Assembly: GCA_052055015.1 (NCBI GenBank)
Contig: JBQJIT010000084.1
From: Malassezia furfur
Lineage: Eukaryota
Length of the DNA: 32,425 nucleotides
Reading direction: 5' to 3' (one strand)
Position 1 is the first letter of the stretch, and each line of letters begins with the position of its first letter. This document shows, piece after piece, positions 2,471-32,425 of this stretch. The translations under genes were made by a program, and so were the position numbers. Under the pieces are notes generated by a model. That model had not been told where the DNA came from. It saw only the letters and a list, made by a program, of their open reading frames with translations, and did no database searches.

Positions 2471-4426
2471 ATGGCGTCCGTTAACCCGCTTGCCGGTGTC
2501 CCTCCCGGCGGCAGTGCAGCCATGGGCCGCCCGGGGTCGATGACCCCCTCGCAACCACTACCGTCCCACGGACCACCACATTCGACATCCCCTCCGCCTG
2601 GTGCCCACCCGATCGCGGGAGCCGTGGCCCCGGGAGCTGGGCAAGCGATTTGGTCCGCTCGGCTACTTGATCTACTCAATCTCGTCCGCCACGAGTTCGA
2701 TGTGATCGGGAACGATGCCGTGCACTTCAAATCCCAGCGCGATGAGATGGAGCATCGGAGTATGTTATTTCCGCGCTAACGCCAGTCGCCCAGCAGTTCA
2801 ACGAAGTGACCTTGATGCAGGACCATGTGTATGAGCTTGAAAAGCGCCACTGTGATATCGTTGCGCAGTACGAAGAGGAAATAAAACGCCTCCGTGGCCT
2901 GCTCGATGCGCGCGGCGTCCCGCATGCTCCTGACGCTGGATCCTTCGCGCCTGCCTTGGCTCCGTCGCGCGGTGCGGGCGGCAACTCGTCGCGTGCGTCG
3001 TCTCCGACGCGCGGACGTGCAGAGCGCCTGCCGCCGCCGGACGTCGGTGCGCACGCCGCGCCGCGCGGCGCACAGGCTGCCGAAGCGTCATGGCCGCCGA
3101 GCAAGCGTGCCAAGACGAACGGCACGGCACCAGGCGCACAGGCCAGCGAATCGCGTCCTCCGCGGATGAAGCGCGAGGAGCGTGAGCCCAAGCGTCCGAG
3201 TACGTCTGCGCTCCCTGACCCAGACCCGCCTGCGGCGCCCGAGCCTTCGGCCAAGGAGGACGAGGCGCGCACAGAGGCCGCGGCCGATGCGGGCAAGCCT
3301 CCTGCCGCGGCCGAGCCGACGCCCACGCCCGCGCCCGAGAATGCTGGCGAGGAGCCCGCTGAGCAGAGTCAGGCGCTGAAGAAGGAAGGAAGCGACTGGG
3401 TCGCTCTGTACAATCCCAAGGCGCAGCCGGCGCTCGACGTGAACCTGGTGCACACGTTGATGCACGACAGTGTGGTGTGCTGCGTGCGCTTCTCGCCCGA
3501 CGGCAAGTTTTTGGCCACGGGGTGCAACCGCGCGGCCAACATCTACGACAGCAAGACGGGCGCCAAGACGTGTATGCTGCAGGACACGTCGTCGGAGAGC
3601 GAGGGCGACCTGTACATCCGCAGCGTATGCTTTAGTCCCGACGGCAAGTACCTCGCGACGGGTGCCGAGGACCGCCAGATCCGCATCTGGGACATTGCGG
3701 AGAAAAAGATCAAAACGACGCTCACGGGCCACAAGCAGGAGATCTACTCCCTCGAGTACTCGCAGGATGGCCGCATCCTCGCCAGCGGCTCTGGCGACAA
3801 GACGGTGCGCATCTGGGACATGGAATCGGGCACGCCGATCCATGTGCTCTATACGAGTCCTGGTCTGAACTACGGGCTCGGCGTCACGGTGATTGCCCTG
3901 AGCCCCGACGGGCGCTTGGTGGCCGCCGGCGCGCTCGACACGTTTGTGCGCGTGTGGGACACCAAGACGGGCAAGCTGCGCTGCCGCCTCAAGGGCCACA
4001 AGGACAGCATCTACAGCGTGGCCTTTATGCCCGACGGCAAGACACTCGTGAGCGGCAGCCTCGACAAGACGCTCAAACTGTGGGACTTGACGCGCATTAC
4101 GCAGTCGCTCGACTCGATGGACGACGAGGTCTCCAACTCGTCCATGTGCATCTCCACGTTTACAGGACACAAGGACTACGTGCTGTCCGTATCGTGCTCG
4201 CCGCAGGGCCGCTGGATCGCCTCGGGCTCCAAAGACCGCAGCGTGCAGTTCTGGGACCCGCAGTCGGGCCAGTCGCAGCTCGTGCTACAGGGCCACAAGA
4301 ACTCGGTGATCGCCATCAACCTCAGCCAGACGGGGAACCTGCTCGCGACAGGCAGTGGGGATTTCAAGTACGTCGCACGAGACTCACCACAGCGCACGAA
4401 TCTGGTCGTACGAGAATACGTCCTAG
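2471..4426 (+). CDS. TUP1: General transcriptional corepressor Tup1 (634 aa); exons 2471-2759, 2786-4367, 4393-4426
   Basis: Tup_N domain (RLLDLLNLVRHEFD...QRDEMEHR|IAQQFNEV...VYELEKRHCDIVAQYEEEIKRLR) and a WD40 propeller (HDSVVCCVRFSPDGKFLATGCNR, DLYIRSVCFSPDGKYLATGAED). Splicing restores the conserved C-terminus ATGSGDFNARIWSY. Confidence 0.97.
2760..2785 (+). other. Spliceosomal intron, 26 nt (TUP1 intron 1)
   Basis: gtatgt-tatttccgcg-ctaac-gc-cag; removal joins the two Tup_N frames. Confidence 0.93.
4368..4392 (+). other. Spliceosomal intron, 25 nt (TUP1 intron 2)
   Basis: gtacgt-cgcacgaga-ctcac-ca-cag; removal gives GDFNARIWSY, the conserved last WD40 strand. Confidence 0.93.
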
Positions 4427-4455
4427 CTATGTCGTATAGTGGAGTGGGAGATGCA

Positions 4456-5322
4456 TTAATCGCGTCGTGGGTACGGAGGTGTGCGGTCGGGACTGGGGGA
4501 CCGACGCCGCGCGTCGCGGCGGTCGGGACTCACAGACCGGCGTCGCGTGTCGCGGTGATCATCATAGCGGCCGCCATAACGGTCGTCGCGGCGGTCGTCG
4601 TAGCGATCGACGTAGCGGTCGTCGCGGCGGTCATCGTAGCGGTCGCGCTCGTCGGGCCCATCGGCGCGTCGCTGTGCACGCGGACCCTGTGTGTCAGTGG
4701 GAGGAGGACGTACCCATCCGGAGTCGCGCTCGCGGCGCGTCACATTGCCGCGTTTGTCGACGAAACTATCGGGCGGCCGCCGTGTTTCGCGTCGTCGGTC
4801 GGCACCGATGGGTGACCGCCCGCGGTCAAAACGCCCAGCGGGCCGTGCACTTGCATCGTGCGGCGCTGGCCCAGCCGTGCCGCGGCGGCGTACCTCGCTC
4901 ATGACATGATCGGTCTCGGCGCGCGCCTGCTGCATCTCGCGCTTCTTTTGCTCCACAAATGCACGTGGAATGCCCGCAACCGAGTCTTGCGCGGAGAGCA
5001 ATAGGGACCATAGTTCGGCCATGAACGGGCGTGCGCGCTTCTCGAGGAAGCCTGTGAGCGAGATCTGCATTTTGCGGGGGTCCGGGAACTGCTCGCTCTC
5101 GAGGTGGTCGCTGACAAACTCGACGAGCACCTCATCTTCGAAGCCCAGGATCGCCTCGACCTTTTCGGCGATCCACGGGCGCATCACCTGGAGGTTGACC
5201 TTGGATGTATCGACGCGCTCGTCAAAGTTGCTGGGGTATTTGGTCGACTTGAGCAGCGCATCCTCCTTGTTTTTGAAGCGGACGTCGTCGCCGCCGGCCA
5301 CCCCCCGGAAACCGTCCACCAT
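4456..5322 (-). CDS. PWI-domain splicing factor (SRm160/SRRM1-like), ~279 aa, probable intron 4687-4713
   Basis: GFRGVAGGDDVRFKNKE...FDERVDTSKVNLQVMRPWIAEKVEAILGFEDEVLVEF...PDPRKMQISLTGFL...FMAELWSLLLSAQDSVAGIP is a PWI domain, followed by an RD/RS-rich tail. Confidence 0.92.
   Translation of the reverse strand: MVDGFRGVAGGDDVRFKNKEDALLKSTKYPSNFDERVDTSKVNLQVMRPWIAEKVEAILGFEDEVLVEFVSDHLESEQFPDPRKMQISLTGFLEKRARPFMAELWSLLLSAQDSVAGIPRAFVEQKKREMQQARAETDHVMSEVRRRGTAGPAPHDASARPAGRFDRGRSPIGADRRRETRRPPDSFVDKRGNVTRRERDSGWVRPPPTDTQGPRAQRRADGPDERDRYDDRRDDRYVDRYDDRRDDRYGGRYDDHRDTRRRSVSPDRRDARRRSPSPDRTPPYPRRD
4559..4648 (-). repeat. Coding 12/24-nt imperfect tandem repeat (RYDD-RRDD units)
   Basis: Encodes RDRYDDRRDDRYVDRYDDRRDDRYGGRYDD in the PWI protein tail. 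Confidence 0.7.
4687..4713 (-). other. Probable in-frame, stop-free spliceosomal intron, 27 nt (PWI gene)
   Basis: gtacgt-cctcctccca-ctgac-aca-cag matches the local intron consensus; removal gives RERDSGW|GPR. Confidence 0.75.
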
Positions 5323-5335
5323 GATAGGTGGAGGA

Positions 5336-5343
5336 CCACGTGT
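5336..5343. promoter_or_regulatory. CACGTG E-box in the 60-bp PWI/PRS divergent promoter
   Basis: CACGTG at 5337-5342. Confidence 0.5.
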
Positions 5344-5382
5344 GACGGGCTCCGCTCGCACGCTCATCACGTTTTTCTACGG

Positions 5383-6627
5383 ATGCCTGGGGTGAACTCG
5401 ATCAAGCTGCTCACGGGCAACAGCCACCCGGAGCTCGCGCAGCTGGTGTCCAAGCGGTGCGTTGTGTGCATGCTCACACAGACTCGGCGTCCCGCTTACC
5501 GAGTGCATCTGCCGCAAGTTTGCTGACCAGTCGATCGACGTCCGCATCGGGTCGTCGGTGCGGGACCAGGACGTGTTCGTGATCCAGTCGGGCCACTCGC
5601 CATATGTCGACCCGAACGACAGCCTGATGGAGCTGCTGATTATTCTGTCGGCATGCAAGACGGCGTCGGCGCGCCGCATCACGGCCGTCATCCCGTCGTT
5701 CCCCTACTCGCGCCAGAACAACAAGGACAAAAGCCGTGCGCCCATCACCGCCAAGATGGTCGCGAACATGATCACCACGGCGGGTGCCGAGCACGTCATC
5801 ACTGTCGACTTGCACGCGAGTCAGATCCAAGGGTTCTTTGACGTCCCTGTCGACAACCTGACGTCCGAGCCGTCCATTGCGCGCTGGATCCGGAGCAATG
5901 TGGACGACTGGCGCGACGCCATCATCGTGTCGCCGGACGCCGGCGGTGCCAAGCGGTACGTGTGCCCCACTCACCCAGTGCGACGTCGCTCGCCGACTTC
6001 CTCGGCATCGACTTTGCCCTCATCAACCGCAACCGCCGGCGCGAGCATGCGCGGCGCCATCATCACCACCCGCACCACCACCACCACCTCGACATGACGC
6101 AGCTTGCCGTGTCTGAGGTCGCCAACGGCGTGCTGTCTATGAGCGACAGCGGCGAGTGGTTCATCAACGAGGAGGACGGCCGCCGGCTGCGCAGCGGCGG
6201 CCACCGCCGCCCGCAGGTGGGCGCAGAGAGCGAGCAGGGCATGTCGGACGACGAGAACGACGCCAAGATGGAGGTGCTGGTCGGCGACGTCACGGGCAAG
6301 ACCGCCATCCTCGTCGACGACATGATCGACACGGGCCGCACGCTTGCCCTCGCGGCCAAGACGCTCGAAGCAGCGGGTGTCAAGCGCGTGTTTGCCGCTG
6401 TCTCGCACGGCCTGCTCTCTGGCCACGCGGTGGACCTGATCAAGCGGCTGAATATGGAGAAGCTCGCGGTGACCAACACCATCGCAAACCACGGGAAGGC
6501 GGCCGCGAGCGGCGGCATGATCCAGATCGTCGACATGTCGGCCGTTATCGCCGAGACGATCCGCCGCTCGCACCACGGCGAGAGCATCTCGACCATGTTC
6601 CGCCAGGACGCCGAGATGATGTTTTAG
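5383..6627 (+). CDS. PRS: Ribose-phosphate pyrophosphokinase (PRPP synthetase) subunit with a loop insertion, 398 aa; exons 5383-5456, 5482-5955, 5979-6627
   Basis: [94 protein letters not shown]. Confidence 0.95.
5457..5481 (+). other. Spliceosomal intron, 25 nt (PRS intron 1)
   Basis: gtgcgt-tgtgtgcatg-ctcac-a-cag; restores VSKR|LGVPL. Confidence 0.92.
5956..5978 (+). other. Spliceosomal intron, 23 nt (PRS intron 2)
   Basis: gtacgt-gtgcccca-ctcac-c-cag; restores the conserved GGAKR|ATSLAD. Confidence 0.93.
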
Positions 6628-6634
6628 ACATAGA

Positions 6635-8661
6635 CTACATGGCACTGAAGAAGGTTGCATCGAACGCCTCGGGCTCCAGTTTGCCCTGCTTCATCTTTTT
6701 CACGGCGCGCTCCTCGGCCGCCCAGTCCTCCTCGTCGCTCGCGTCCGACGGCGAGGCTGGCGCAGGCGCACTCGCCTGCTCGTGCAGCCACCGCCGCTTG
6801 CGCTCCTTCTTCTCGCGGCGCACATCGCGCGCCTCCTTGCGCCGTTTTTGCTCGCTCCACGCGCCCTCTTGCTTCTTGGCGGGCGCCGCACGCGGCGGCG
6901 GTGCGGGCGCCGCATCCTCGCGCGCCAGTGCGGCGACGCGCTGCGCCTCGCGCCGCTTGTCAGCGTACGCAAACGTGCGGAGCTGGGTCAGTAGCAAGTA
7001 CGTACGTCCGGCATCGCGTCGTCAAACAGCGACGCATTGTCCCCATTCCGCTCACGCCACCGTGCGACTTCCGGCATGCGCGGCAGGTTGAGCAGCGCAA
7101 ACTGACACGCAAGCCGGTCGAGCGGCAGGTCCGCGAGGCGGAAGATGTAGTTTACTTCGTGCTTCGAATAGGCGCGCACGTAGCTCACAAACGCGCGCAT
7201 CCCCAGCTCGTACAGCGCACGGTCAGTACGCACCGTGTCGCGCAGCGACTGCTCGAGCGCACGGGCGTCGTCATCTGTCTGCGGCTCATCGCCGTACGCG
7301 AGCGTCGGCAAGACATAGCGCATCGGGCGCAGCGGCACCTGCTTGACCTGCAGGTATTCTGCGTGAGTGGCGTACACGTACCGACATAGCCCTCCTCGCG
7401 GCCCTCGTGCAGCAGCACAATCGCACGGCCTGTTCGCCCGGCACGCGCCGTGCGCCCACACCGGTGCGAGAATACCTTGGGGTCGTTGGGCGGGTCGTAC
7501 TGGATCACGACGTCGACGTCGGGCAGATCGAGGCCGCGTGCGGCGACGTCCGTGCACAGTAGCACGGTACACTGCGCATCCATAGCGCCCATATGGTCCG
7601 TGTCGTGTGCGTCGGTATGTGCGTTTGCAAATGCCTGGAACGTCGCGTGCCGCCGCTTGGTCGTCTGCTTGCCATGCAGCGAAAAGAACTGCAGGCCCTG
7701 TGTGGCGTCGGGGTGCGCCTTGGTGTGCTGGCTGAGCAGCGTAAACACGTAGTTGACCTGCGCACATGTGGCAAAGTACACGATGCACTTGTGCGCGCCG
7801 TCCTGCGCTTCGCGCCGCAGCAGACGCAGCAGCTGTGCTAGTTTGTTCTCGGGGCGCGACACGTGGTAAAAGTTGTGTAGCGTCGCGGGCATGCGGATGT
7901 CCTTGCGCGTCGCCGAGCCCTTGGCCTTGGTCTCGACCTTGACCACCACACGCACGGGGTTGCGCAGGCCGACACGGACCAGCTCGGTGAGCGCTTCGGT
8001 CATTGTCGCACTGAACAGCCCCGTGCGTCGCTGTTTCGGCAGGTACGCAAGCAGCGCGCGGATCGGCTCAACAAAGCCCAGGTCCAGCAGGCGGTCTGCC
8101 TCGTCCATGACGAGCACATCGAGCTCGCTGGTGCGCACACCGGGTTTCTTGAGCAGCTCTTCCATGCGTCCCGGCGTGCCGACAAGGATGTCGGGGCCGT
8201 TTTCGCGGAACACGCGGTAGTCTTCAGCAGGGGACACTTTCAGGCCACCCACAACGAGCTGTACGGGGCCCACACGCCCGTGTGGCGCGGTGTCCTCCGG
8301 CTGGGCGTCCAAGAAGCGCTGCAGCACACCGCACGTCTGTTCCGCAAGCTCGCGCGTGGGGCACACAATGACCGCACCGAGCTCGTGCTTCTTCAGACTA
8401 ACCTCGCGCCGTCGCAGGATCTCGAGAATGGGTATTACGAACGCGAGTGTCTTGCCCGAGCCCGTCACGGCCTCGGCGACCACGTCCTTGTGTGAGAGGA
8501 ACAGCGGGATGGACGCGGCCTGCACGGGCGTCATCTGTGTATATTTCATGGATGACACGACATCAAGTCTGTATGAGTTGTGTTACCTACATCCACTCGC
8601 TCAGCGGCGGCCGCACCGTGGACCAGGCGCCGGCCGCCATCGCCGCGTCGCTTTGCGCCAT
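6635..8661 (-). CDS. SPB4: DEAD-box RNA helicase Spb4/DDX55 (652 aa); exons 8661-8591, 8568-7382, 7358-7006, 6982-6635
   Basis: MTPVQAASIPLF, VVAEAVTGSGKTLAF, PTRELA, DEADRLLDLGF, LPKQRRTGLFSAT, GLRNPV, TDVAARGLD, HRCGRTAR, AFVSYVRAYSKHEVNYIFR, and a basic Spb4-type C-terminus. An alternative ATG lies at 8640. Confidence 0.95.
6983..7005 (-). other. Spliceosomal intron, 23 nt (SPB4 intron 3)
   Basis: gtacgt-acttgcta-ctgac-c-cag; restores MPD|LRTFAYADKRRE. Confidence 0.9.
7359..7381 (-). other. Spliceosomal intron, 23 nt (SPB4 intron 2)
   Basis: gtacgt-gtacgcca-ctcac-g-cag; restores GREEGYV|EYLQVKQVP. Confidence 0.92.
8569..8590 (-). other. Spliceosomal intron, 22 nt (SPB4 intron 1)
   Basis: gtaggt-aacacaa-ctcat-a-cag; restores the Spb4 N-terminal PPLSEWI|LDVVSSMKYTQMTPVQ. 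Confidence 0.88.
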
Positions 8662-8770
8662 CGACTTTTTTTTTTGGAAACCACGCCTCCACACGGCGAC
8701 GACACCCGCATCGGGATCTCCGCGGGGTACTCGGGAAGTGCCTCAAACCGTTCCTGCATCCCGTACCACG

Positions 8771-11458: not shown

Positions 11459-11472
11459 TTGTGATATACACT

Positions 11473-11892: not shown

Positions 11893-11954
11893 CGTGGAGG
11901 GCCACGCACGCGGCCTGCGTGGAATTCGGCCCCATTCTTCCTCCACACTCAACC

Positions 11955-12337
11955 ATGCGGCTCGCGTCGTCGGTCGCCGTGGGGGTGGTGCTGGCCCTCA
12001 GCGCGCTGCCTACGCACGCTCAGTTCTTCCAGCACATGTTCCAGCAGGGCGGTGCCGGACACAACTTCTTCCACACGGGCGGCGAGCAGGAGGCCCAGGC
12101 TGTCGGTGACGCCTCGTGGTTCCAGGAGCGCGTCCGGAATGGTGCGTTGCGCGCGCGACTAACGCAGCGAAATGCAACGAGTACTTGTGCAGCGACACGC
12201 TCGCATGCGTCTCGGAACCTAGCGAATGCCCGTGCCCGTACGCCGAGCAGACGCGGTGCAAGGTCGGCGACAGCTACGTGTGCGTGACCTCGGTGGACTG
12301 TCGCGAAACCCACCGTCTGTACCATCTCTCGGAGTGA
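11955..12337 (+). CDS. LCL2: Long chronological lifespan protein 2 (secretory, Cys-rich), 118 aa; exons 11955-12141, 12168-12337
   Basis: Signal peptide, then AQFFQHMFQQ and CNEYLCSDTLACVSEPSECPCP...C....SYVCV, the Lcl2 signature. Confidence 0.9.
12142..12167 (+). other. Spliceosomal intron, 26 nt (LCL2)
   Basis: gtgcgt-tgcgcgcgcga-ctaac-g-cag; joins RVRN|AKCNEYLC. Confidence 0.92.
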
Positions 12338-12354
12338 ACCATATGTGCTATAGC

Positions 12355-13553
12355 CTACACAAGTGCGTCCATGCGCACAAATACATTTAACACGCCCGCG
12401 ATGACTTCGAACGCCGCCTCGTTGCTGCTCGTCTCCAGCTCTTGGGACATCGCCTGCACCAGCTCAGCGTCTCCAGCGCCGATCGTCTGCGCCTTGCGCT
12501 TCTTGGACGAGCCGCTGCCCACAGCCACGCTCGGAGCCGAGGATGACTTGCGCGGGATGCCACCGCCAGGCGTGTCGGGCGCCATGGGCCACTGCCCAAA
12601 GGTGGAGAGTAGCGATCCGACCCGTCGGAACACTTGCTCCCTCGTGTCCGAGGAGAGGTGAGTGAGCGTGTTTTCCAGTACATTGGCACAATAGGCACAG
12701 CAGACCATGCACAGCGTGCGGGTCACTCGGAGGCCCACGTTCCCCCCGTCCTCTTTGTAGAACTCGTCGGGGTGCACACTCTGGGATTTCGACATGAGCA
12801 GCGCGTACAGTCGCCGCAGCACGGCATCTTTTTGCGACGGGTCCGCAAGCGGATGCGTCGGCATGTCAAACAGCAGAAAATTGCGCTTCTCGGTGCGCAG
12901 GACTCCCTTGTCGACCAGTCCTTTGGCGATGCGCTCGCGCACCTGTTTCAGCTGCAGGTTGAGCTTCATCACGTTCCATGTCTCGCCTGGGTGAGTGCTA
13001 CACCAAACGTACCGCTCAGCAAATCCATCCAGCCGATGATGCTTGCCGGCGAATTCGCCTTGATTAGACGCAGCGCCTCGTCCAAGAGCGGCTCGCCGGT
13101 ATGCTTGGTGTTTCGCACCTCGATGATGCGATCCGCAGGTTCCGACAGCTTGTTGTCTGGGTGCTTCGAGACGCGGATTCGGTCGCGGAGTGCGAGCTCG
13201 ATGAGGATGCAGCCGCGCAATGTATAGGAGATGTTTTCGTTCCAGAACGAGAGGTAGCCTTGTCGGTCCTTGAGGCCAAGCAACAGGATTTCTTCCATGA
13301 GATTCAGGCGGGGATTCGTGAGCGTCTCGCGCTCATCGTTCAGATCGCGCGGATCGTACGCGACACGGTGCCCCGACTTGAGATCCACGGCTGCAACGGA
13401 GCCCGAGCCGGAGCCCATCTCGATCACATCACTCCGCGCACGCGCGTTTGACGTCTCGGCGATGGGGTGCGTGTCCTCTTCATCGTCCACAGACATACTA
13501 TGCGCCTCGTGCGCAGGGGCGCGACGCCTCTGCAGTCCCGACGACGCGGCCAT
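12355..13553 (-). CDS. VPS74: Golgi PI4P effector Vps74/GOLPH3 (390 aa); exons 13553-13013, 12986-12355
   Basis: N-terminal GLQRRR, HRVAYDPRDL, PRLNLMEEILLLGLKDRQGYLSFWNENISYTLRGCILIELALR, LLSG|ETWNVMK, QLKQVRERIAKGLVDKGVLRTEKRNFLLFDMPTHP. Confidence 0.97.
12987..13012 (-). other. Spliceosomal intron, 26 nt (VPS74)
   Basis: gtacgt-ttggtgtagca-ctcac-c-cag; restores the invariant LLSGETWN. Confidence 0.95.
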
Positions 13554-13589
13554 TCGAAGAAAGCTCGGTCCCCACGATGTGGGTTGGTT

Positions 13590-13597: not shown

Positions 13598-13620
13598 TGT
13601 GGCCTCCACATTCGACTATC

Positions 13621-14140
13621 ATGGCCAGTACGCCGCCCGCCGTGCCGCTTTCGCCGTACAATGTGTTCTGGCTTCTGCATGTGATTCTGGAGCTCCCAAT
13701 GGGCATTCTCGCGTTCCTCTCGCCGCGCGACCTACCCTTTGGTGACCTGACACCCACGACGGTGTTGGTCGCTCGCGTACGTCGCCGCACTGACGCAGCT
13801 CCTCGGCTCGTTCCTGATTGCGTCCAGTGTCAGCTGCCTGCTGATGTTTGGCCTCCCCGACTTTTTGCCGGGCAAGCGTGCCTTCGCGGTGCAGCTTCTG
13901 CTCTTCCACGCGATCGTTTCCTCCGTCTTCTTCCAGCTGGACCCCCACATCATCCAGCTGGAGCTTCCTCCGTTCTTCGCAGAGACGCTGCACGGCGACG
14001 AGATTCTGGAAAAGGTGCCGATCCAGATGATTGTGGGCGTCCTGCACGGCCTGCTTTCGCTGCTCATCACCGTGTGGTGGCAGGCGACCATCCCGCTCGT
14101 CAAGGGCGCCGCCCAGATGGCCCACGCCAAAGCTCAGTAA
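13621..14140 (+). CDS. Hypothetical ~4-TM membrane protein, 165 aa; exons 13621-13776, 13799-14140
   Basis: The spliced ORF has four hydrophobic segments (VFWLLHVILELPMGILAFL; VLVARLLGSFLIASSVSCLLMFGL; AFAVQLLLFHAIVSSVFF; IVGVLHGLLSLLITVWW) and a GLPDFLPGKRA loop. It fills the gap between VPS74 and PI31. Confidence 0.8.
13777..13798 (+). other. Spliceosomal intron, 22 nt (4-TM gene)
   Basis: gtacgt-cgccgca-ctgac-g-cag; joins two hydrophobic frames. Confidence 0.87.
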
Positions 14141-18983: not shown

Positions 18984-19554
18984 ATGGCGGACGACGCGCG
19001 CGCAACGGCCGACAAGCAGCTGATCCACGCAGCACGCACGGACAATGTCGATCTCTTTAACTCTGTTGTGAATGCGGACCCGCCAGTGCCGTACGATATC
19101 AACTACGCGGACGGCGTCGGGAACACCGCGCTGCACCATGCCGTCGAGAACGTCTCCATTCACGTCCTGGACCTGATCCTCGACGAGGAGGTCGATGTGG
19201 ACGCGCGGAACTGCCTCGAGGGCGATACCCCGCTGCATCTGGCATGCCGTATCTCGAACGAAGAAGCGCGGAACTATGTCGGTATGTTGACGCTCGCACT
19301 TACCCAGTCCACGAACTCCTTGAGGCTGGCGCACCAACCGACACCAAAAACAACGCAGGGCTGCGGCCCGTTGATACCATTGTGGGCGCACGCGCGGAGT
19401 CGGAGCTGGGGAAACAGTGCATCGAAATGCTGACCATGAGCCAAGCCGAGGCCCAGCTGGAGCCCACCGACATTGCGTATGGTACGTTGTTCTCAAGGCT
19501 CACACAGACGATGACGACATTGCTGACGATGGCGAATCGGATGTCGAACCCTAG
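18984..19554 (+). CDS. Small ankyrin-repeat protein (yeast YGL242C-like), 172 aa; exons 18984-19281, 19308-19481, 19508-19554
   Basis: QLIHAARTDNVDL, DGVGNTALH, VLDLILD, EGDTPLHLA, LLEAGA..D.KN..G..P.D, and an acidic tail after splicing. Confidence 0.87.
19282..19307 (+). other. Spliceosomal intron, 26 nt (ankyrin intron 1)
   Basis: gtatgt-tgacgctcgca-cttac-c-cag; restores NYV|VHELLEAGA. Confidence 0.9.
19482..19507 (+). other. Spliceosomal intron, 26 nt (ankyrin intron 2)
   Basis: gtacgt-tgttctcaagg-ctcac-a-cag; gives the acidic tail DIAY|DDDDIADDGESDVEP*. Confidence 0.85.
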
Positions 19555-20183: not shown

Positions 20184-20530
20184 ATGAGTGCACGGAAAGC
20201 AGGGGTCAAGCAGCCCGAGGTGATCCAACAGTGGGCGGATATGGACTCGGAAGGTGCGACGTTTGAGCGGCACCGCATGGACGCCCAGGTCCAGTCCATC
20301 TGCATTACCGACCAGGCGGGCGTCCCCGACGCGCTGAAGGACACAAGCAAGGGCATCAAAGTGAAGGCGAGCGATGTGAACTACTTGGTACGTCTATTCT
20401 TGTGTGACATACTCATGCGTAGACGCAGCAGTTCCTTATTCCCACCCATATGGCAGAGACCGCACTTGTGCAGGGCGGCGGAGACGTCAATGCGGCCGTC
20501 ACTGTGCTCCTGACCAAGTCGCTTGCGTAG
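20184..20530 (+). CDS. HYPK: HYPK-like protein (NatA-associated, C-terminal UBA-like domain), 103 aa; exons 20184-20387, 20423-20530
   Basis: The spliced C-terminus IKVKASDVNYL|TQQFLIPTHMAETALVQGGGDVNAAVTVLL matches the HYPK/NAC-type UBA pattern (V.I...D...I.....I....AE..L....G.V..A...L). Confidence 0.75.
20388..20422 (+). other. Spliceosomal intron, 35 nt (HYPK)
   Basis: gtacgt-ctattcttgtgtgacata-ctcat-gcg-tag; the longest intron seen in the window. Confidence 0.82.
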
Positions 20531-22747: not shown

Positions 22748-22826
22748 ATTTTGTAGTCGCTGGTCGCGGCCGCTTGCGCGCACCGGCACGCACCCTCCAC
22801 GCATAACTCCCCATCCTCGGACCGTG

Positions 22827-24122: not shown

Positions 24123-24134
24123 GGGTATAGGCTG

Positions 24135-26567
24135 CTACATACTTGCACTTGCGCGCTCGAGCAGCGCCGCGACGCTGGTCGGCTCGTACTCGCCCGCGTC
24201 TGTCGCGGCAAACACTACGTCGTCATCCAGATAAAACGACACGCCGCGTTTTCCGTCAATATGCTTGGCGACACGTAGCAGGGCCAGGCCCGTAGTGGGC
24301 TCCAGCTTGTTTTGCGCGAGGACAAACAGGTCGCGCTTCCGCGCCTCGTCTTCGACGATCGTACGGAACGCCACATCTTCGAGCACGGGCGGCGGTGCCA
24401 TGGCCGGCCGCCGGGCGTCGGCGGCGGCAGCGGCTGCGCGCGCCTCGCTGCGCGACGTCGGCTGGACGTCGGGCATCGGCAGCGTGTCGCGGTGCTCGCC
24501 GAGATCCAGCGCACGGTTCATCAGGCGAAGCGCACGCATCAGCACGCTGGCGACGCCCGCGAGGCGCACCACGTCCGGTGGGAAGTAGTGCCGCCAGAAC
24601 GTGTACCACGCGGCGACCTCGTCGAAGCGCAGCGTCGGCTGCACGAGCCACGTGTGGAGGGTGCGGAGGAAGTGCGCGCCAAACTCGACCTCGAGCAGGC
24701 GGCTCAATACGCTCTCGCGGAGCACGGGGCGCCACGCAAGCACCTGGTCGAGCGTCGCGAGGTCCTGGTCCGCCGGGTTCACCACAAAGTCGGTGCGCAG
24801 CGCCTTGCCGAGCGCAGGCACCACCTTGTCGAGCAGCAAGGCGTCCCAGTCTTTGGCAGGGAACACCTCCTTCCAGTGTGCCAGCTCGGGCGGCACACCG
24901 TCGGCGACGCGCCACGCAGTGAGCGCGCTGCGCCACTGCTGCCGCGCGTCGGCAAGCAGCGTGTCCATACGCTTGCCACCCACCGGGACCCACGGGAGCA
25001 GGAGCACGTGCAGCGGCACACGCTCCCTCGGCGACCAATGGCGCACGGCGCAATGCAGCTTGGGCAACACAAGCTGCTCCAGCACATTGTCATACAGGAA
25101 GGGCGGGAGCAGGTCGCGCCACGCCTCGACGAGCGCGATCGCCGACGCGGGGTCGTGCACGTCCCATGCGCCCGTGAGTGTGCTGCGGATCTTGGGCATC
25201 CACACGTTCCACAAGACGCTTTCGTACGGCGTCATGACGCCCTCGGCACGCGATGCGGGCTGCAGCGCCGCGCGCCACGGCGCGAGTGTCGCAGTGAATG
25301 CGTGCGGCGCTTCGAGCGGGTCCCAGTCGACAAGCACGCGGCGCAGCACCGGCACAAGTGCGCCGGCCACCGCCTCGTCCAGGCCCAGCTGCGCGGTGCG
25401 TGGTGACTGCGCCTGTGCGGCGAGCAGCGCCTCGACAAACGGTGCAAGGTCCTCGAGGCGCTCGGCGACCTGCGCGGCCTCACTCAGGCGCACTACCGTG
25501 TCCAGCACGGAGCGCAGCACCGCACGCTCCTCGTCTATCTTGGCCGCGCGCCGCGCACTCTCGTGCAGATCGCGATCGAGCCAGCGTGCGCGGTCGAGAT
25601 GCGCGGCGCCCTCGCGCGCGAGCTTCTGGAGCGCGTCGCGGCTCCCGTCGCTGAGCAGGCGCAGGTTGTGCCGCAGCTCGGGCAACTGCGCACTCTCGCT
25701 CGTCGGCACCGCGTGCTTGGCCAGCGCTGCGGCTAGCGAGTCGACTTCGCGCACCTCGTGGCCGGTCGCATCGAGCACGGGGCCGACGCCGGGCGCGGCC
25801 GCCTCGGCAATGATCTCTTCGTACGTGCGATACACCACCGTAGGTTTGCGTTCCTTGGCCTTGCGGCGCCAGGCTGACGACGAGATGGTCGGTGCGCGCT
25901 GCGTGGATGCGTCGCCCTCGTCCTCGTCGCTCGACGCGGGTGCACCGGTGCGGCGGCGTTCCTCGGCGCGCGCCTGCTTCGTCTTTTCGCGCAGGCCGCC
26001 AAATGCGACACCCGCGCGCGTGGGGCGCAGCTGGACCTCGATCGGGTTGACAATGCCCTCGCCTTCCTTTCCGAGACCGCCGCCCGTCCAGCCCATGTGC
26101 CGTAGGTACGCGGACGGATCAAAGCCGCCCGACCCCGACACGCGCGACAGCGGCACGGATGGCGGCGGCGCGGGCGCGGGCGGCGGTGTCGGGCGCGCGG
26201 GGGGTCGTGCCGCTTGCTCAGTGCGCGCGTCGTGGCCCGTCTGGCCGCGAGCATGTGCGAGTTTTGCGCCGAGTCCCGCGCCGATGGACCGCCGTGCAAA
26301 CGAGAGGGTATCGTCGTCGCCGCTGTCCGAGGCAGCGTCGCTCTTGGCCTGTGCCTCGGTGGGCGCTTGTGTGGATGTATCGGCGGACGCCTCGGAGCGC
26401 GACGTGTGCCCTGCGGCGACAAACGCCGGCGGCTTCGACGCGCGCACAAACGACGGCGCGGCACCGCGTCTCTCCTCGCGACCCGTCACCGCATCGTCGT
26501 CGCTAGAGTGCACCGAGTCGTTGGAGTCGGAGCCCTCGGCGAGCCAGCGTGCTTTGCGTCGCGCCAT
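24135..26567 (-). CDS. TFIP11: Spliceosome disassembly factor TFIP11/Ntr1(Spp382), G-patch + GCFC domain, 810 aa
   Basis: G-patch YLRHMGWTGGGLGKEGEGIVNPIEVQLRPTRAGVAFGG; LPELRHNLRLL; MTPYESVLWNVWMPKIRS; WRDLLPPFLYDNVLEQLVLPKL; FVVNPADQDL; EVAAWYTFW. Confidence 0.93.
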   Translation of the reverse strand: MARRKARWLAEGSDSNDSVHSSDDDAVTGREERRGAAPSFVRASKPPAFVAAGHTSRSEASADTSTQAPTEAQAKSDAASDSGDDDTLSFARRSIGAGLGAKLAHARGQTGHDARTEQAARPPARPTPPPAPAPPPSVPLSRVSGSGGFDPSAYLRHMGWTGGGLGKEGEGIVNPIEVQLRPTRAGVAFGGLREKTKQARAEERRRTGAPASSDEDEGDASTQRAPTISSSAWRRKAKERKPTVVYRTYEEIIAEAAAPGVGPVLDATGHEVREVDSLAAALAKHAVPTSESAQLPELRHNLRLLSDGSRDALQKLAREGAAHLDRARWLDRDLHESARRAAKIDEERAVLRSVLDTVVRLSEAAQVAERLEDLAPFVEALLAAQAQSPRTAQLGLDEAVAGALVPVLRRVLVDWDPLEAPHAFTATLAPWRAALQPASRAEGVMTPYESVLWNVWMPKIRSTLTGAWDVHDPASAIALVEAWRDLLPPFLYDNVLEQLVLPKLHCAVRHWSPRERVPLHVLLLPWVPVGGKRMDTLLADARQQWRSALTAWRVADGVPPELAHWKEVFPAKDWDALLLDKVVPALGKALRTDFVVNPADQDLATLDQVLAWRPVLRESVLSRLLEVEFGAHFLRTLHTWLVQPTLRFDEVAAWYTFWRHYFPPDVVRLAGVASVLMRALRLMNRALDLGEHRDTLPMPDVQPTSRSEARAAAAAADARRPAMAPPPVLEDVAFRTIVEDEARKRDLFVLAQNKLEPTTGLALLRVAKHIDGKRGVSFYLDDDVVFAATDAGEYEPTSVAALLERASASM

Positions 26568-26631
26568 GGCGCTCGAGGCGAAGCGGTCGTGTGGATGACT
26601 AAACAAACGAATGTCAGGGCGCTCGGCACAG

Positions 26632-29181
26632 CTACGGAATCGGCGGCGGCGTCGATGCGGGCGCCGCGATGTCGGGCGGCGGCGTGCCGGGTCGCTCGGG
26701 CAGCGCGTCCTCGGTGGGCGGCGTGGGGAGGTCCGGCTTGGTGGGCGCCGGGGGCTCGGCAGGCACTGGCGCCGCGTCCGCTTCGGCGGCCTCGGCAGGT
26801 GCCTCGGGCGCGCTGGGCGCCTCCAGCGCGCCAGGCGCGGGGCCACTCGCCGGCGCGCTGTCCGAGACGAGCTCGCTAATCACCGGCTCAGGGCGCGACC
26901 ACGACTTGAACTCGGTCCCGTACGAGCCGCTCAGCTTGCGGTCGTGGCTGGGCAGATTCGCGTACGGCGGACGGCCCGTCGTGTCGCCGTGGGGCAGCTG
27001 CGGGCGCGTCGCGTCGCCCTGCAGCACGAACCGCTGCATCTCGGTCGGGCGCGGGTTCGGCTGCATCTTGGGCGTCCACACCGCCTCGGCACGCAGCGTC
27101 GCGGGCACATGGCCCGGGCGCACGAGCGGCTCGGGCGGCTCGTCGCGCTCGCGCTCTTCGGCGCCATGGGACTCGTCGCCGATCGGGCCCGGCGACGCGT
27201 TGAGCGCAGGCGCGGGCGCCGGCGTGCGCATCGGCTGGAACTCTTGGCTGGGCGGCATGGTCAGCTGCGCACTGCGCTTCGAGCCCAGTTCTTTGCGCGG
27301 CGTGAGCAGGCGCAGGTCCCGCGCCGAGGGCGTCGACTTGAAGCCGGCGTACGTGCCCGACTCGAGCAGCGTGCCCCATGCGGGGTCGACGCGGCGGCGC
27401 GGCATGCTCGCGGCCGTCTTGCCCGAGTTGAGCATGCTCTTGGAGCGGCTGGTCGACAGCTTCATGCGCGTGCCGCCCGCATCGCTCGCGGCCGAGGTCT
27501 GTGCGTTGAGCGCGCGGTAGTGCGCGGGCGCACTGCCGTCCAGGTCGGCCTGCGCGACGCGGTCCAGGTCGCGCTTGTGGGGGGGGAAGAAGGGTGTGTT
27601 GCGGTTGATGCTCGCAGCAGCGCGCTCGCTGCCGTTCATGGACTCGTGCACCTTTTCGTCCAGCGCCTCGAACACACTGGGCGTCGAGAGGTCGTCGGGC
27701 GGCGCGTAGGCGACGTTGCCCTCCTCTTGCTGTTCGCGCAGCCACGCCGGCAGGATGCCGTGGTGCCGCCCGAGGTACGAGGGCGTCGGCGCAATCGTGG
27801 GGCCCAGCCCGGCGTACTGCACGCTGCCCGAGTCGAGCGCGTCGCCGCTGTTTTGCCGCGCCTCGTGCGCAAGGAAGCTCGACATCTTGTTGATCGAGTG
27901 CGTGCGCCGCTTCGCGTGCGTCTGCGGCGGCGCCTCTTGCCCGGTCAGCAGCCGCGGCTTGTCGCGCTCCACCTGCCCGCTCGACGAGGACAGCACCGTG
28001 AACGTCTTGGGCCGCAGCGCCTGCCGCGACGCCTTTTTCATCTCGCTCCGGGCGTTCAGCGACGCCTGGATCAGCGGGCTGACCTGCGGCAGCGACGGCG
28101 GCTGCGGCGCCGACGGCCGGTCGAACGAGGGGCGCGTCGTGAGCAGGTGCGGCGACTCGGGCGCACGCAGCGACGCACGCGACGGCTGGTGCGTGATGTC
28201 GGTATCGTCGGGGCCCGCCACGGTCGCCGACGTGCTCGGGTGCCGCTCGAGCGTCCCGGGCTGCGGCGGCAGCACCGTCGGACGCGCAAGGACCGGCTTG
28301 GGGCGCACGACCTGCGGACTCGACCGCGTCTCGGACGCGTGCTCGGTGCGTGCGTCCTCGTCGGGCAGCTGCCGCGGCGGCGCCTTGGGCACACTCACCA
28401 GCATCGGCTGGGGCAGCATCGGCGGCGGCGACGACCGCGTCGCCATCTTGGGGATGTCGGTCGCGGCACTGCTGACGCGCGACGAGCTGTGGTGCGGGCG
28501 CCACCGCCGCGACTCGGGCGGGCGAGTCTGGAGAAAGATGAGGTCCTTGTCAATCACGCGGCCCTGCTGCGCCCACGACGCGAGACGCAGCATCGCGAAA
28601 AAGTGGCCCGGCGTGAGGCCGAGCGGCAGCCGCTCAAACAGCGACATGATCTTCACCTCGTCCTCGACCGTGATCCCAAACTCGTTGCGGAGGAACTTGA
28701 CCGCAGCATGCTCGTCGAGCAGCCCGCGCCGGCGCGTGTGGGCGGGCTTGATACGCTCGACCCAGCGCCCAAACTGTACATATTCCTGGGGGCTCAGGGC
28801 CGACACATCCAGCACGCTCGGGCGCTCCGCCTGCGCCATGCGGATCTGCGTAAGCGGAGAGGACATCGTTGGTATCTGCTGCGGCGTCGTCTGGCCGGTC
28901 AGCACGGTGTCGTTCGTCTTCCACGAGGTAAACGAGTTGGACGTCGTACGAGAATGCATCGAGCCGGACGGCGGGTTGGACGACGCGTGCACATACACGG
29001 ACGGCGTCGCGGGCGCCTGCACGGGGTTGATCGGCTCGTTCCAGTAGTATGACGGTTTTTTCGCGCTCGACCTGCGCGGCTGTTGTGCGTGGATCTCGCG
29101 CGCGGCTTGGAGATCCTGCGAGGCTTTTGCTTCTAGCGCAGGTACGGCATCTGCGCCCGAGAGCGGGACCTCGTCGGCCAT
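26632..29181 (-). CDS. Proline-rich protein with an N-terminal EH/EF-hand-like domain (Scd5-like), ~849 aa
   Basis: LSPQEYVQFGRWV...AAVKFLRNEFGITVEDEVKIMSLF...LTPGHFFAMLRLASWAQQG resembles the degenerate EH-like region of Scd5/EH proteins. The remainder is S/P-rich and likely disordered. Confidence 0.6.
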   Translation of the reverse strand: MADEVPLSGADAVPALEAKASQDLQAAREIHAQQPRRSSAKKPSYYWNEPINPVQAPATPSVYVHASSNPPSGSMHSRTTSNSFTSWKTNDTVLTGQTTPQQIPTMSSPLTQIRMAQAERPSVLDVSALSPQEYVQFGRWVERIKPAHTRRRGLLDEHAAVKFLRNEFGITVEDEVKIMSLFERLPLGLTPGHFFAMLRLASWAQQGRVIDKDLIFLQTRPPESRRWRPHHSSSRVSSAATDIPKMATRSSPPPMLPQPMLVSVPKAPPRQLPDEDARTEHASETRSSPQVVRPKPVLARPTVLPPQPGTLERHPSTSATVAGPDDTDITHQPSRASLRAPESPHLLTTRPSFDRPSAPQPPSLPQVSPLIQASLNARSEMKKASRQALRPKTFTVLSSSSGQVERDKPRLLTGQEAPPQTHAKRRTHSINKMSSFLAHEARQNSGDALDSGSVQYAGLGPTIAPTPSYLGRHHGILPAWLREQQEEGNVAYAPPDDLSTPSVFEALDEKVHESMNGSERAAASINRNTPFFPPHKRDLDRVAQADLDGSAPAHYRALNAQTSAASDAGGTRMKLSTSRSKSMLNSGKTAASMPRRRVDPAWGTLLESGTYAGFKSTPSARDLRLLTPRKELGSKRSAQLTMPPSQEFQPMRTPAPAPALNASPGPIGDESHGAEERERDEPPEPLVRPGHVPATLRAEAVWTPKMQPNPRPTEMQRFVLQGDATRPQLPHGDTTGRPPYANLPSHDRKLSGSYGTEFKSWSRPEPVISELVSDSAPASGPAPGALEAPSAPEAPAEAAEADAAPVPAEPPAPTKPDLPTPPTEDALPERPGTPPPDIAAPASTPPPIP

Positions 29182-29708
29182 CAAGGTACACGTATTCACG
29201 TCCTAGTCAAACGGGTCGAAACGCGTGCCAGGGCAGGGACAGGGCAAGCGGGGTCTATCAGTCAAACAAGACAGACCGCCGTCGGTTCGCGTCAGGGGCC
29301 ACGGTCGCCACAATCGGGGCCCTTTCGATCACGTGGGCGCGCCGGGACGCAGCGCCGGCGTCCTATCGGGGCGCAGGTCCCGATGATTTGGGCCCGTTCG
29401 CGATAGTGTCCGCGGACCTGGCCACCCACGCGCGCATCGCATGCCGCATGCGATTCGTGCACCCACGCACCCACCCAACGCCGATCGGGTATCGGCTAGG
29501 CGGCCACGCAGATCCGGAGCACGGCGCGTCGCAACGTCGATCCGTCGATCCTCAGCAGGGCAAAATTCGCGCAACGTCAGGCGCCAAATTCGTGTACAGC
29601 CGCTCGCCACGCCGCACCGTCGGAGGCCCAGCGTGCCCTGCACACGCCCTGCACACGCTCCACCGCCGCGCGCTGCCATCGCACCGCGTCGTCCGTAGCG
29701 TCTTCGTA

Positions 29709-29726
29709 GCACGTGACCCGACGCGT
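29709..29726. promoter_or_regulatory. GCACGTGAC E-box plus adjacent ACGCGT (MCB-like) upstream of separase
   Basis: CACGTG at 29710-29715 and ACGCGT at 29721-29726; another CACGTG at 29330-29335. Confidence 0.45.
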
Positions 29727-29751
29727 GGGGTTGTTCTCTCGACGTGTTGCA

Positions 29752-32425
29752 ATGCCAACGCTGGCGGCGCGCGCGCCCGCACGGAGCGCAGACGGCCGCG
29801 CACCACGGCGCAAGGCCCCGGCGTTCGACGAAGTGCTGCGCCGGCTGTCCGCTGCATCGGCGCTCGAGCGGCCTGTCGTCGCGGCGGTGCTGACGCACCT
29901 TCATGCGGCCGACCTCGCGCGCTCCGTCTCTCTGTATACCAGCACCCACACGGATGTGTGTGCCGCGGGGCTCGCATGGAGCACGGACGAAATGCGCAGG
30001 ACCCACGCGAGCTCGGACGCCGCGCGCGAGCGCCACGCGAAGCAGGTCGCCAACGCCGTGCTCACGGGCCTGCAGCAGCTCACGGAGAAGCCGTCGACGG
30101 CGCGCCGGACGTCGCAGGTGGCACGTACGGACGACGGCGTGGCGGTTCACATACTAATTGACTGCTTCCGTATCGCTATGGCGACGCTCGTCACGTCTGC
30201 GTGTGCGGCTGACACGCTCGTCCACGTCGGACTGTCCGCCGTGCGCAAGCTGGACAAGGTGCAGCATGTACGTCTTGTCGCTGACCCAGCACGATGAAGC
30301 ACTGACGGAGCTGGTCGCAATCGCTTCGGTTGTGCACCCGCGCACGTCGGACGGCACAGTGCGAGCGCCGCCCGCGGTCCTGGACCGCCTATACGCGGTG
30401 CTTTCACAGCCCGGGGCGTCCTCGGCTACTTCAGCCACAGCCGCTGCCGTCGTCGAGATGCAGGCGCTTGCGGTGCACGTTGCTGCCGCCCAGATTGCAT
30501 CTGAGGCGTCTTTGGAATGGGCCGACGTCGTGCGCGTCCCAGACGGCCCGGCGGCATGGCAGGCGGCGGCACGCGCCCAGGGCATGAACGGCGCCGCGGA
30601 CCGGGCTGCCTACCTGTTCGAGCGCGCCGTGTTCCAGCAGATTGCGCCGCACCTAGCGAGCGATGCAGCGCGCCTCCAGATCAAAATGGACACGCTGATC
30701 CAGCTGAGCTTTGTGTCGCAGCTCGACGTCGAGGCGTTCTGGGACCGCGTCGCCAAGGTCACCATGGGCCACGTCCGTCGCACGGGCGATGCACACGTTG
30801 CCGACGTGCACGCGCACCTTGTGCGGCTTGTGCACGCGGCACATGCACGATGCAGTGGCACGGCATACGAGCGGCTCGGCGTTTGGTGGCTCGCGATGGC
30901 CGAAAAGGTTCGTGACTCGCTTACACAGACGGCACACCCCGCAGCGGCCGAGATCACACAACATGTACGCAATGGCGCCGACGTATCTGTGCTGCGCACC
31001 GATGGGTCAGACGTTTCACCGGCACACGCGACCGAGGCGCTCGCCGAGCTGCGCCTCGACACGCCTCCCGCTGCAGACCTTGGTGCGGCTGTGGCACAGT
31101 GGGCGGCGCAGCACGACGCGGCAAGTGCGTCCACCTGCGTTGCTGCGCTTGCATCGCTTACCGCCGTTTCAATGGACGACGCAGCGAGGGCCACGCTCGC
31201 CGCCCTCCTCCACGATACCCTCACGGACGTGCCGGCCGCGCCGCCTGTGCCCGTTCTCGACGTGCTTGCAGCGAGTGCTGCAGCGGTCGAACGGTGTGCA
31301 TGTGAGGCTGCGGTGTCGGATGCAATCCACGCACTACGTGTGGTCAGCGTCGGCCGCCTGGACGAGGCACAGCCCGCGACGTTCGGCGCGAGTCTCGACG
31401 CGCTCCAACTCGCTGCACGTCTCGCTGGATCCAGCGCGAGTCGGCGCACGTACGTATCGGACGTGGCCTTCCACATCGGTAGCCGGCTGTATGCACGCGC
31501 GGCGTACGCCCATGCGGTGCCATTTTTGCGCCTTGCATGGGATGCGGCGCACGATGCCGACGCCGACGCCGATGCGCAGGCGCAGCGGCCCCGCAAGGCG
31601 CACCTCCTCGCGGGTGCCTATCAGCACATGGGCAGCTACTCCGAAGCGTACGCTGCGTACCTGGACGCGATGCGCGCATGCCCCGCGCTCAACGATGCGG
31701 GCGACGTCGCACGCGCGCACGCGCTTCCTGACGCACTGGACGAAGGGCCTCTGGCATTGCCTGGCGCTCTGGTGCGTGGTGCACTCCACGTCGCCGTGTA
31801 CTGCCTGTTGCGGCCGACGGATGCGGCCGACCCTGCGAGCTTTGCAGCGACGTTGCGCTCGCTGGAGCTGTCGGACGCATCGTACGCAGCATGGTGCGAG
31901 TACGCTGCCCTCAACCTTGAACCACAGCTGATGCGCGACGAGACGCCCGCTGCGCTCGACGCCATGCATGCGGCGGCACTCGACGTGTACTCCGTGGATC
32001 GCTACCCCCTCCGCCGCGCGCGTGTCCTCCTAAAGATTGCGCTGTATGCTACGCTGCGCGGCAACGCACGTACAGCGGACCTCGATGCATGCCTCGCTGC
32101 GCCGCCCGCTGAAGACGCACAGCTCGCCCATCTGCGCGACGCACTGCAGGCTCTCGAGGCGATGCAGCGTGTCCTTGCGCTCATTGGCACTGCGCCAATG
32201 GGCACGACGTCACTGGATGGCGCGGCAGAGGCTGCGGCGAAGGCCCTCACCCATGTCGATGCGCACCTCGCCGGCCCCACTCCAAGCACACGCACACGCA
32301 CGCGCACGACACGCACGGCACCAACCCCAATGCCCACGCGCACGTCGGCGCGGACCGCCGGACGTACGACGCGGCCCGCCGCGCCGGCTGCGACGCCCCG
32401 CACGCGGTCGACGCGCGGAGCGGCA
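29752..32425 (+). CDS. ESP1: Separase N-terminal region (partial); exons 29752-30267, 30290->32425
   Basis: The spliced frame appears open to the window end. It contains fungal separase helical-region motifs SAVRKLDKVQH|HDEALTEL, VSDVAFHIGSRLYARAAYAHAVPFL and YPLRRARVLLK (32003-). The protease domain is outside the window. Confidence 0.8.
30268..30289 (+). other. Spliceosomal intron, 22 nt (separase)
   Basis: gtacgt-cttgtcg-ctgac-c-cag; without it the frame stops at 30295-30297. Confidence 0.9.

Follow-up and report, generated by a model that had tools for sequence, protein, structure and literature searches.

Predicted introns of 22–35 nucleotides in nuclear genes of Malassezia furfur

Introduction

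Very short introns in Malassezia genes have been pointed out in a review of this yeast genus (PMC7426719). In M. sympodialis, 5350 introns with a mean length of 30 base pairs (bp) were annotated in 4493 genes (∼1.2 per gene), 99% of them with support from RNA sequencing (RNA-seq), and a homology-only annotation contained 1661 RNA-seq-supported introns compared with 5271 in the curated set (PMC5389616). In M. restricta, the median intron length is 30.0 and the mean is 37.2, and the annotation of this species and of M. arunalokei used a minimum intron of 20 in BRAKER and a min_intron_len of 15 in AUGUSTUS, with models that were hand-corrected with RNA-seq (PMC6473144, PMC9241646). Here, we analyzed a 32,425-nucleotide (nt) stretch of M. 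furfur DNA (contig JBQJIT010000084.1 of GenBank assembly GCA_052055015.1, below called the window), for which a first-pass annotation had listed 15 GT-AG introns of 22–35 nt. These segments are very probably ordinary U2-type GT-AG spliceosomal introns of M. furfur nuclear genes that lie near the minimum size for the genus.

Tiny introns also occur in Paramecium (∼20–30 nt), Stentor (∼15–16 nt), the nucleomorph of Bigelowiella natans (18–21 nt), and microsporidia. The ciliate, nucleomorph, and microsporidian introns are of the GT-AG kind, lie near the physical minimum, are presumably recognized by intron definition, and contain little beyond signal. These lineages are unrelated to Malassezia, which, unlike them, keeps a strong yeast-like donor and a CTNAC motif fixed 5 nt from the acceptor.

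The window fits the Malassezia short-intron class in its Malassezia nuclear host, its intron lengths (range 22–35 nt, mean 25.1 nt, median 25 nt), and its frequency of roughly one intron per gene. The introns of M. sympodialis are of the same GT-AG kind and from the same genus, with a mean of 30 compared with 25.1 in this M. furfur window; the M. restricta median is ∼5 nt longer than that of the window, and branch-site geometry is not discussed in the available parts of the M. restricta reports (PMC6473144, PMC9241646). Introns of the basidiomycete Cryptococcus neoformans, which shares the phylum and the family of splice signals, have a mean of 63 bp and are ∼2.5 times longer than those in the window, and the fungal intron survey that reports this value and includes M. 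sympodialis does not, in its available part, single out Malassezia intron length (PMC8476143). Our searches found no literature on branch-site geometry, minimal intron length, or spliceosome adaptation in Malassezia. Short introns are a genus-wide trait that is already published, to which the window adds M. furfur cases at the short end, a modest shift. The claim in the first-pass annotation that the novelty lies in the degree of shortening is weak, because a mean or median of 30 bp is in print for the genus and some of the window introns are present in public M. furfur records.

Lengths and splice signals of the introns

All 15 GT-AG segments that the first-pass annotation had placed in the window were recovered at their listed lengths by a loose motif scan and a per-segment table (Table 1). 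Three of them are 22 nt long, three are 23 nt, two are 25 nt, five are 26 nt, and there is one each of 27 and 35 nt. The donor conforms to GT[AG]NGT in 15 of 15 (GTACGT in 10, GTATGT in 2, GTGCGT in 2, and GTAGGT in 1), the acceptor is AG in 15 of 15 (CAG in 14 and TAG in 1), and a branch-like motif, CT[ACGT]A[CT], is also present in every segment, with a distance from its A to the 3' end of 5 nt in 11 segments, 6 nt in 2, and 7 nt in 2. As had been proposed, the A of this motif (CTGAC or CTCAT) occupies intron position 17 in all three 22-nt segments. Donor and branch motif are separated by a spacer of 7–18 nt, which accounts for all of the length variation; it is 7 nt in the 22-nt introns.

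Table 1. Predicted introns and in-frame candidate segments in the window, in order of position. A slash marks the splice junction in the protein; signals are given on the sense strand.
Gene	Intron	Position	Strand	Length (nt)	Signals or junction
TUP1	1	2760–2785	+	26	GTATGT...CTAAC...CAG
TUP1	Candidate 16th, in frame, stop-free	3200–3223	+	24	GTACGT...CTGAC...CAG
TUP1	2	4368–4392	+	25	
PWI-domain gene	Candidate, in frame, stop-free	4687–4713	−	27	GTACGT...CTGAC...CAG
PRS (ribose-phosphate pyrophosphokinase)	1	5457–5481	+	25	
PRS	2	5956–5978	+	23	
SPB4	3	6983–7005	−	23	DAMPD/LRTFAYADK; between Pfam CTE_SPB4 and CTT_SPB4
SPB4	2	7359–7381	−	23	REEGYV/EYLQVKQ
SPB4	1	8569–8590	−	22	GTAGGT...CTCAT...CAG; PPLSEWI/LDVV
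Small secreted Cys-rich protein		12142–12167	+	26	
VPS74/GOLPH3		12987–13012	−	26	
Membrane protein (165 amino acids)		13777–13798	+	22	GTACGT...CTGAC...CAG
Small ankyrin-repeat gene	1	19282–19307	+	26	
Small ankyrin-repeat gene	2	19482–19507	+	26	Full motif
Small HYPK/UBA-like gene		20388–20422	+	35	
Separase		30268–30289	+	22	

These signals are enriched over chance. A strict pattern (GT[AG]NGT...CTNA[CT], followed by 1–3 nt and AG, with a total length of 20–36 nt) had 14 matches in the window compared with 1.35 ± 1.22 (maximum 7) in 200 dinucleotide-preserving shuffles, and a relaxed pattern, in which 1–4 nt may precede AG, had 16 matches compared with 1.74 ± 1.41 (maximum 6) in 300 shuffles. 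The 16 relaxed-pattern matches comprise the 15 listed segments and one further segment, 3200–3223, and each of the 16 is in the sense orientation of a gene known by Pfam or homology.

Reading frame and colinearity at the junctions

The length of 14 of the 15 segments is not a multiple of 3. When the frames downstream of each junction were scored for codon usage, with four intron-free genes of the window as the training set, the post-splicing frame ranked first in 13 of the 15 downstream exons, and clearly so in 12; the exceptions are the terminal exons of TUP1 (10 codons) and of the ankyrin gene (15 codons) and the low-complexity tail of the PWI-domain protein. Removal of the segments produces gap-free colinearity with orthologs, solved structures, or Pfam profiles at 11 of the 15 junctions (three in SPB4, two each in TUP1 and PRS, and one each in VPS74, the membrane protein, separase, and the first intron of the ankyrin gene). 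Splicing also restores the four motifs that the first-pass annotation had named, which are GDFN/ARIWSY in TUP1, GGAKR/ATSLAD in PRS, LLSG/ETWN in VPS74, and PPLSEWI/LD in SPB4. Taken together, the signal architecture, strand concordance, frame restoration, and colinearity at 11 of the 15 junctions argue with high confidence that the segments are introns.

The translations of the exons are 100% identical to M. furfur records at NCBI, with other Malassezia species as the next-best matches, which agrees with the Malassezia host assumed earlier.

The three junctions of the helicase gene SPB4 (6635–8700, − strand) were aligned with 14 orthologs that range from Malassezia to Mucoromycota. Junction 2 is ungapped in 14 of 14 orthologs, 13 of 14 have no gap within 5 residues of junction 3, and junction 1 is ungapped in 10 of 14; at this last position, three orthologs have no exon 1 or a different one, and M. 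nana has an 8-amino acid insert, probably the translation of an in-frame intron of 24 nt. The SPB4 models of M. yamatoensis and M. vespertilionis begin downstream of exon 1.

Two public M. furfur records of SPB4 have other structures. Record P0009 (477 amino acids) has the 8569–8590 junction, reads through 7359–7381, and ends out of frame; it loses both SPB4 C-terminal domains, which are present in every full-length ortholog. Record P0281 (596 amino acids) is missing exon 1, contains a 38-nt intron (around 7344–7381) that deletes VEYLQ, and also uses a long intron (after 7005) that deletes LRTFAYADKRREAQ...; the residues deleted in this record are conserved across fungi in the 14 orthologs. 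The exact introns of P0281, which differs from the window by one residue, were not recovered by a brute-force search, and its 38-nt intron was read by eye. Gene packing is extreme; around 8402–8660, the start region of SPB4 is overlapped by the stop-to-stop frame of a GRAM/VASt gene.

At intron 1 of TUP1, a Pfam Tup_N match to profile positions 1–33 runs to the final residue of exon 1, and a match to positions 36–76 begins at residue 2 of exon 2; the alignment to P0228 is ungapped, and the same junction is found in M. furfur record P0293. Splicing of intron 2 yields ...GSGDFN/ARIWSYENTS followed by a stop, and P0293 is identical to this model; if the segment is left unspliced, the frame continues into ∼130 amino acids of non-homologous sequence. 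The full-length relative P0228, which is 60% identical, is ungapped at both junctions and ends in ...GSGDFNARVWKYESVSS, compared with ...GSGDFNARIWSYENTS in the window. A protein search with exon 2 yielded mostly multi-WD40 proteins among the 150 matches listed, four of which were inspected, with P0131 and P0228 being aligned. By the gene models, the TUP1 stop (∼4424–4426, + strand) and the stop of the PWI-domain gene (4456–4458, − strand) are convergent within 4393–4460, with ∼30 nt between them.

Solved structures provide the yardstick for PRS and VPS74. The 24 amino acids of PRS exon 1 are too short to be scored alone; exon 2 starts at position 20 of the Pribosyltran_N profile, equal to residue 23 of human PRPS1, and the spliced reading frame is intact. 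Exon 2 corresponds end to end to PRPS1 residues 23–176, residues 2–22 of exon 3 correspond to 179–199, and the split codon at junction 2 plus one residue fill positions 177 and 178. In VPS74, exon 1 corresponds to residues 44–166 of yeast Vps74 (2zih_A) and exon 2 to residues 168–298, the split codon fills position 167, and the Pfam GPP34 matches of the two exons span profile positions 1–88 and 88–184. A separate feature of PRS exon 3 (5979–6624, + strand) is an insertion of ∼70 residues with a His-rich run between the parts that correspond to PRPS1 179–199 and 200–314; this protein would be a PRS isoform with a non-homologous insert.

Introns that probably differ in length between species

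Two of the 22-nt introns can be compared with proteins of other Malassezia species. The spliced model of the membrane protein is identical to M. furfur record P0288, and the frame downstream of 13777–13798 scores +120.9 bits in the codon-usage test versus −110.8 for read-through. The LAR/VAR codons of this protein are kept in M. psittaci P0002 and M. brasiliensis P0286, and in the relative P0008 the intron at 13777 has an in-frame counterpart of 21 nt that is translated (as VCDSLIQ).

The flanks of the separase intron are 80–83% identical to P0129 and to the M. brasiliensis separase P0130. Both of these proteins have the 8 residues RVRFSLTQ where the window separase has one codon plus 22 nt, a length difference of 1 nt that is confined to the intron segment, and the downstream frame of the window gene scores +118 bits in the codon-usage test. 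Because a 1-nt insertion or deletion between lineages is intolerable in coding sequence, this segment behaves as an intron. Back-translation of RVRFSLTQ gives GT...CTGAC..CAG over 21 nt, which the gene callers would have read through, and 21-nt introns probably exist in sister species. Two metagenome contig scans (with an SPB4 exon and P0006 as queries) yielded no DNA from relatives, and for this reason the introns of other species are deduced from proteins that read through in-frame introns.

Introns in small genes

Four further introns are in small genes. In the gene for a small secreted Cys-rich protein, splicing links the exon that encodes a signal peptide with a Cys-rich one and leaves a single stop at the end, and the expected frame scores 11.8 bits in the codon-usage test versus −36.7 and −32.9 bits for the others. 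Exon 1 of the ankyrin-repeat gene ends in the middle of a repeat (Ank_2 positions 1–75 of 90), and exon 2 opens with the second half of one, (H)ELLEAGA..., and its start aligns to designed ankyrin repeats; if intron 1 is left unspliced, a stop follows 50 non-ankyrin residues. Splicing of the second ankyrin intron adds an acidic tail of 15 codons, which is too short for the codon-usage test. In the HYPK/UBA-like gene, exon 2 has weak matches to UBA_HYPK positions 13–40 (E = 0.066) and to the UBA helix of ubiquilin (E = 0.74), searches of the PDB with its exons gave weak matches (E = 0.5–1.3), and the codon-usage test favors the spliced frame at 23.3 versus −24.5 and −43.9 bits. Pfam had no match for PRS exon 1, SPB4 exon 1, either Cys-rich exon, or the membrane protein.

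Discussion

The composition of these segments suggests that each intron is almost wholly signal, with a 6-nt donor, a spacer of 7–18 nt, a CTNAC/CTNAT branch motif, and a fixed tail. Donor hexamers of this kind can pair with the 5' end of U1 small nuclear RNA (snRNA), and the CTNAC/CTNAT motif can pair with U2 snRNA. The presumed branch A would lie 5 nt (sometimes 6–7 nt) before the 3' end, and the next AG downstream of it, in nearly every case CAG, would be the acceptor, in an arrangement with no space for a polypyrimidine tract. We infer that the A of the branch-like motif acts as the branch point, that the lariat loop of the 22-nt introns measures 17 nt, and that the mature mRNA no longer contains the segments. 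If so, the introns would follow a clean design rule, in which a donor is followed by a spacer of 7 nt or more, by CTNAC, and, 5 nt past the branch A, by the acceptor.

Several observations weigh against the assignment of all 15 segments to introns. Firm homology support is absent for four of them (4687–4713, 12142–12167, 19482–19507, and 20388–20422); of these, 19482–19507 and 4687–4713 are identified solely by their signal architecture and 12142–12167 by codon usage. The 27-nt segment at 4687–4713 is stop-free and not needed for the frame, and it could equally stay as coding sequence. For the HYPK/UBA-like gene, a 41-nt alternative at 20388–20428 keeps the same frame as the 35-nt intron, and both acceptors were found in the loose scan. 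M. furfur records P0001 and P0287 (162 amino acids) imply a 31-nt intron at 13768–13798 in the membrane-protein gene. The branch points were assigned from the motif, and the ortholog proteins used as a yardstick are mostly computational predictions themselves.

The records P0001 and P0287 raise the question of whether the cell uses longer introns in place of those of 22–23 nt, that is, 31 nt from 13768, 38 nt around 7344–7381, and a long one after 7005. The first two proteins are without the three codons VAR, which gives the 31-nt intron a GTCGCT donor, P0281 is without VEYLQ and the second deleted stretch described above, and the longer introns leave a frame equal to that of the short ones. 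Against this, LAR/VAR is found in the proteins of M. psittaci and M. brasiliensis and in a further M. furfur record, and EYLQVKQ and TFAYADK(R/Q)RE are conserved across the 14 fungal orthologs of SPB4. The alternative donors, GTCGCT and GTCGGT, match none of the 15 donor hexamers, and the paper behind one of these annotation sets describes the use of the Augustus web server with training on M. restricta proteins, with RNA-seq as a basis for the models not mentioned in its available part (PMC9040865). According to that paper, RNA-seq data for M. furfur strain CBS14141 are deposited under BioProject PRJNA741845. The short introns at 13777–13798 and in SPB4 are better supported than these alternatives, and we consider use of the longer introns by the cell very improbable. 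That the segments are assembly insertions or deletions or frameshifts of pseudogenes would explain why 14 of them break the frame if retained, and this origin would conflict with the one signal architecture shared by segments of 22–35 nt, the concordance of strand with the genes in 16 of 16 cases, the essential and conserved nature of hosts such as SPB4, PRS, TUP1, and separase, the insert-like segments at the same positions in other Malassezia species, and the same junctions in independent public M. furfur records; its probability is close to nil. The two in-frame segments, 4687–4713 (27 nt) and 3200–3223 (24 nt), are a different case, as either could be chance intron-like coding sequence or could be only partly spliced. 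Both are multiples of 3 without stops, lie in low-complexity linkers, and can be retained without harm to the reading frame; the codon-usage test of 4687–4713 in the PWI-domain gene is ambiguous, and the 92%-identical relative P0131 retains the 24-nt TUP1 segment at equal length. The 3200–3223 segment, which was not among the 15 introns listed earlier, is in a poorly conserved TUP1 linker where homology cannot decide. However, both segments have the complete GTACGT...CTGAC...CAG on the sense strand, the number of chance matches expected in the whole window, on both strands, is ∼1.7, P0131 retains the donor, branch, and acceptor codons of the TUP1 segment, and one public M. furfur model, P0293, has this segment spliced out, lacking exactly its 8 codons. 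On balance, chance origin or partial splicing of these two segments has some plausibility and is the less probable outcome.

If the 15 segments are ordinary introns, as is very probable, their size bears on the spliceosome that removes them. The Malassezia spliceosome may have been remodeled, through loss or alteration of U1, U2AF, SF1, or SF3b components, to accommodate lariat loops of 17 nt and a branch-to-acceptor distance of 5 nt. The 22-nt introns, with just 7 nt between the donor hexamer and the branch motif and no room for a pyrimidine tract, would be in line with such a change, and no paper on the mechanism in Malassezia was found in the literature searched. Set against it are the fully canonical splice signals, the splicing-related PWI-domain and G-patch/GCFC proteins of the window, which look intact, and the recognizable spliceosomes of ciliates, a nucleomorph, and microsporidia, whose introns are just as small; we regard remodeling as unlikely. 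A more radical proposal is that introns of the M. furfur clade have collapsed onto a near-quantized minimal design, with early spliceosome assembly unlike the textbook pathway. This design would consist of a 6-nt donor, a spacer of ∼7–11 nt, a 5-nt branch motif, and a fixed 4-nt tail, amounting to 22 nt in M. furfur and perhaps 21 nt in sister species, the latter figure being derived from proteins. Because the U1 and U2 sites would be crowded together and a pyrimidine tract would not fit, assembly on such introns would have to differ, and one possibility is sequential rather than simultaneous occupancy by U1 and U2, or splicing that is independent of U2AF65/Mud2. We view this proposal as speculative and, like remodeling, improbable. 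If it were true, the smallest size at which splicing works could conveniently be studied in this yeast, which can be cultured and transformed. Introns even shorter than these may have escaped notice, because common aligners by default take gaps of less than ∼21 nt for deletions.

Consequences for gene annotation

The first-pass annotation had warned that gene predictors mishandle introns this small, and such errors are seen in the public M. furfur records of SPB4 and the membrane protein. They include a truncated SPB4, an SPB4 with two invented longer introns and no exon 1, and conflicting models of the membrane protein. In records of sister species (M. brasiliensis separase and M. nana SPB4), in-frame introns of 21–24 nt appear to be translated as protein. 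Work that uses the M. furfur proteome, such as orthology, drug-target, and allergen searches, inherits these errors. The 5-nt distance from branch to acceptor and the 22-nt floor are constraints that could be used in gene predictors for the genus. Biologically, the window adds little, as the genus trait is in print with RNA-seq support and the signals are canonical, and its value is mainly for annotation.

Other features of the window

The window has a G+C content of 0.61–0.72 per 2 kb (∼65% overall) and densely packed eukaryotic genes. By Pfam analysis of 136 stop-to-stop frames, these include genes for a PX-domain protein, TUP1 (Tup_N and WD40), a PWI-domain protein, PRS, the SPB4 helicase, a GRAM/VASt protein, a zf-AN1 protein, VPS74/GOLPH3, PI31, Nrap, the small ankyrin protein, acetolactate synthase, a cyclin, and a G-patch/GCFC protein; the small membrane protein and separase were recognized via homology searches. 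In total, there are ∼17–18 genes, 10 of which bear introns, with 15–16 introns among them. Rfam and tRNA scans of the window found no RNA genes.

Two of the proteins encoded in the window are related to splicing, namely the PWI-domain protein (4459–5376, − strand) and a G-patch/GCFC protein of the TFIP11/Ntr1 type (24138–26879, − strand), and both frames look intact. The PWI-domain gene itself holds the in-frame 27-nt candidate intron.

Minor (U12-type) introns have the donor [AG]TATCCTT and a TCCTTAAC-like branch site. This class was rejected for the window introns, as ATCC is present in 0 of 15 donors. A looser scan also gave a segment at 13318–13343 (+ strand, donor GTGAGC), which runs antisense to the coding sequence of VPS74, precedes the start of the membrane protein, and was set aside as a chance match. 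Three nested alternatives (2760–2793, 5464–5481, and 5960–5978) were rejected because their frames conflict with the colinearity to Pfam profiles and PDB structures.

An open frame of 856 codons at 26635–29202 (− strand) has no Pfam match and would encode a Ser/Pro-rich, low-complexity product from an apparently intronless gene. By codon usage it is clearly coding, at +0.76 bits per codon compared with −0.22 for the overlapping frame on the + strand.

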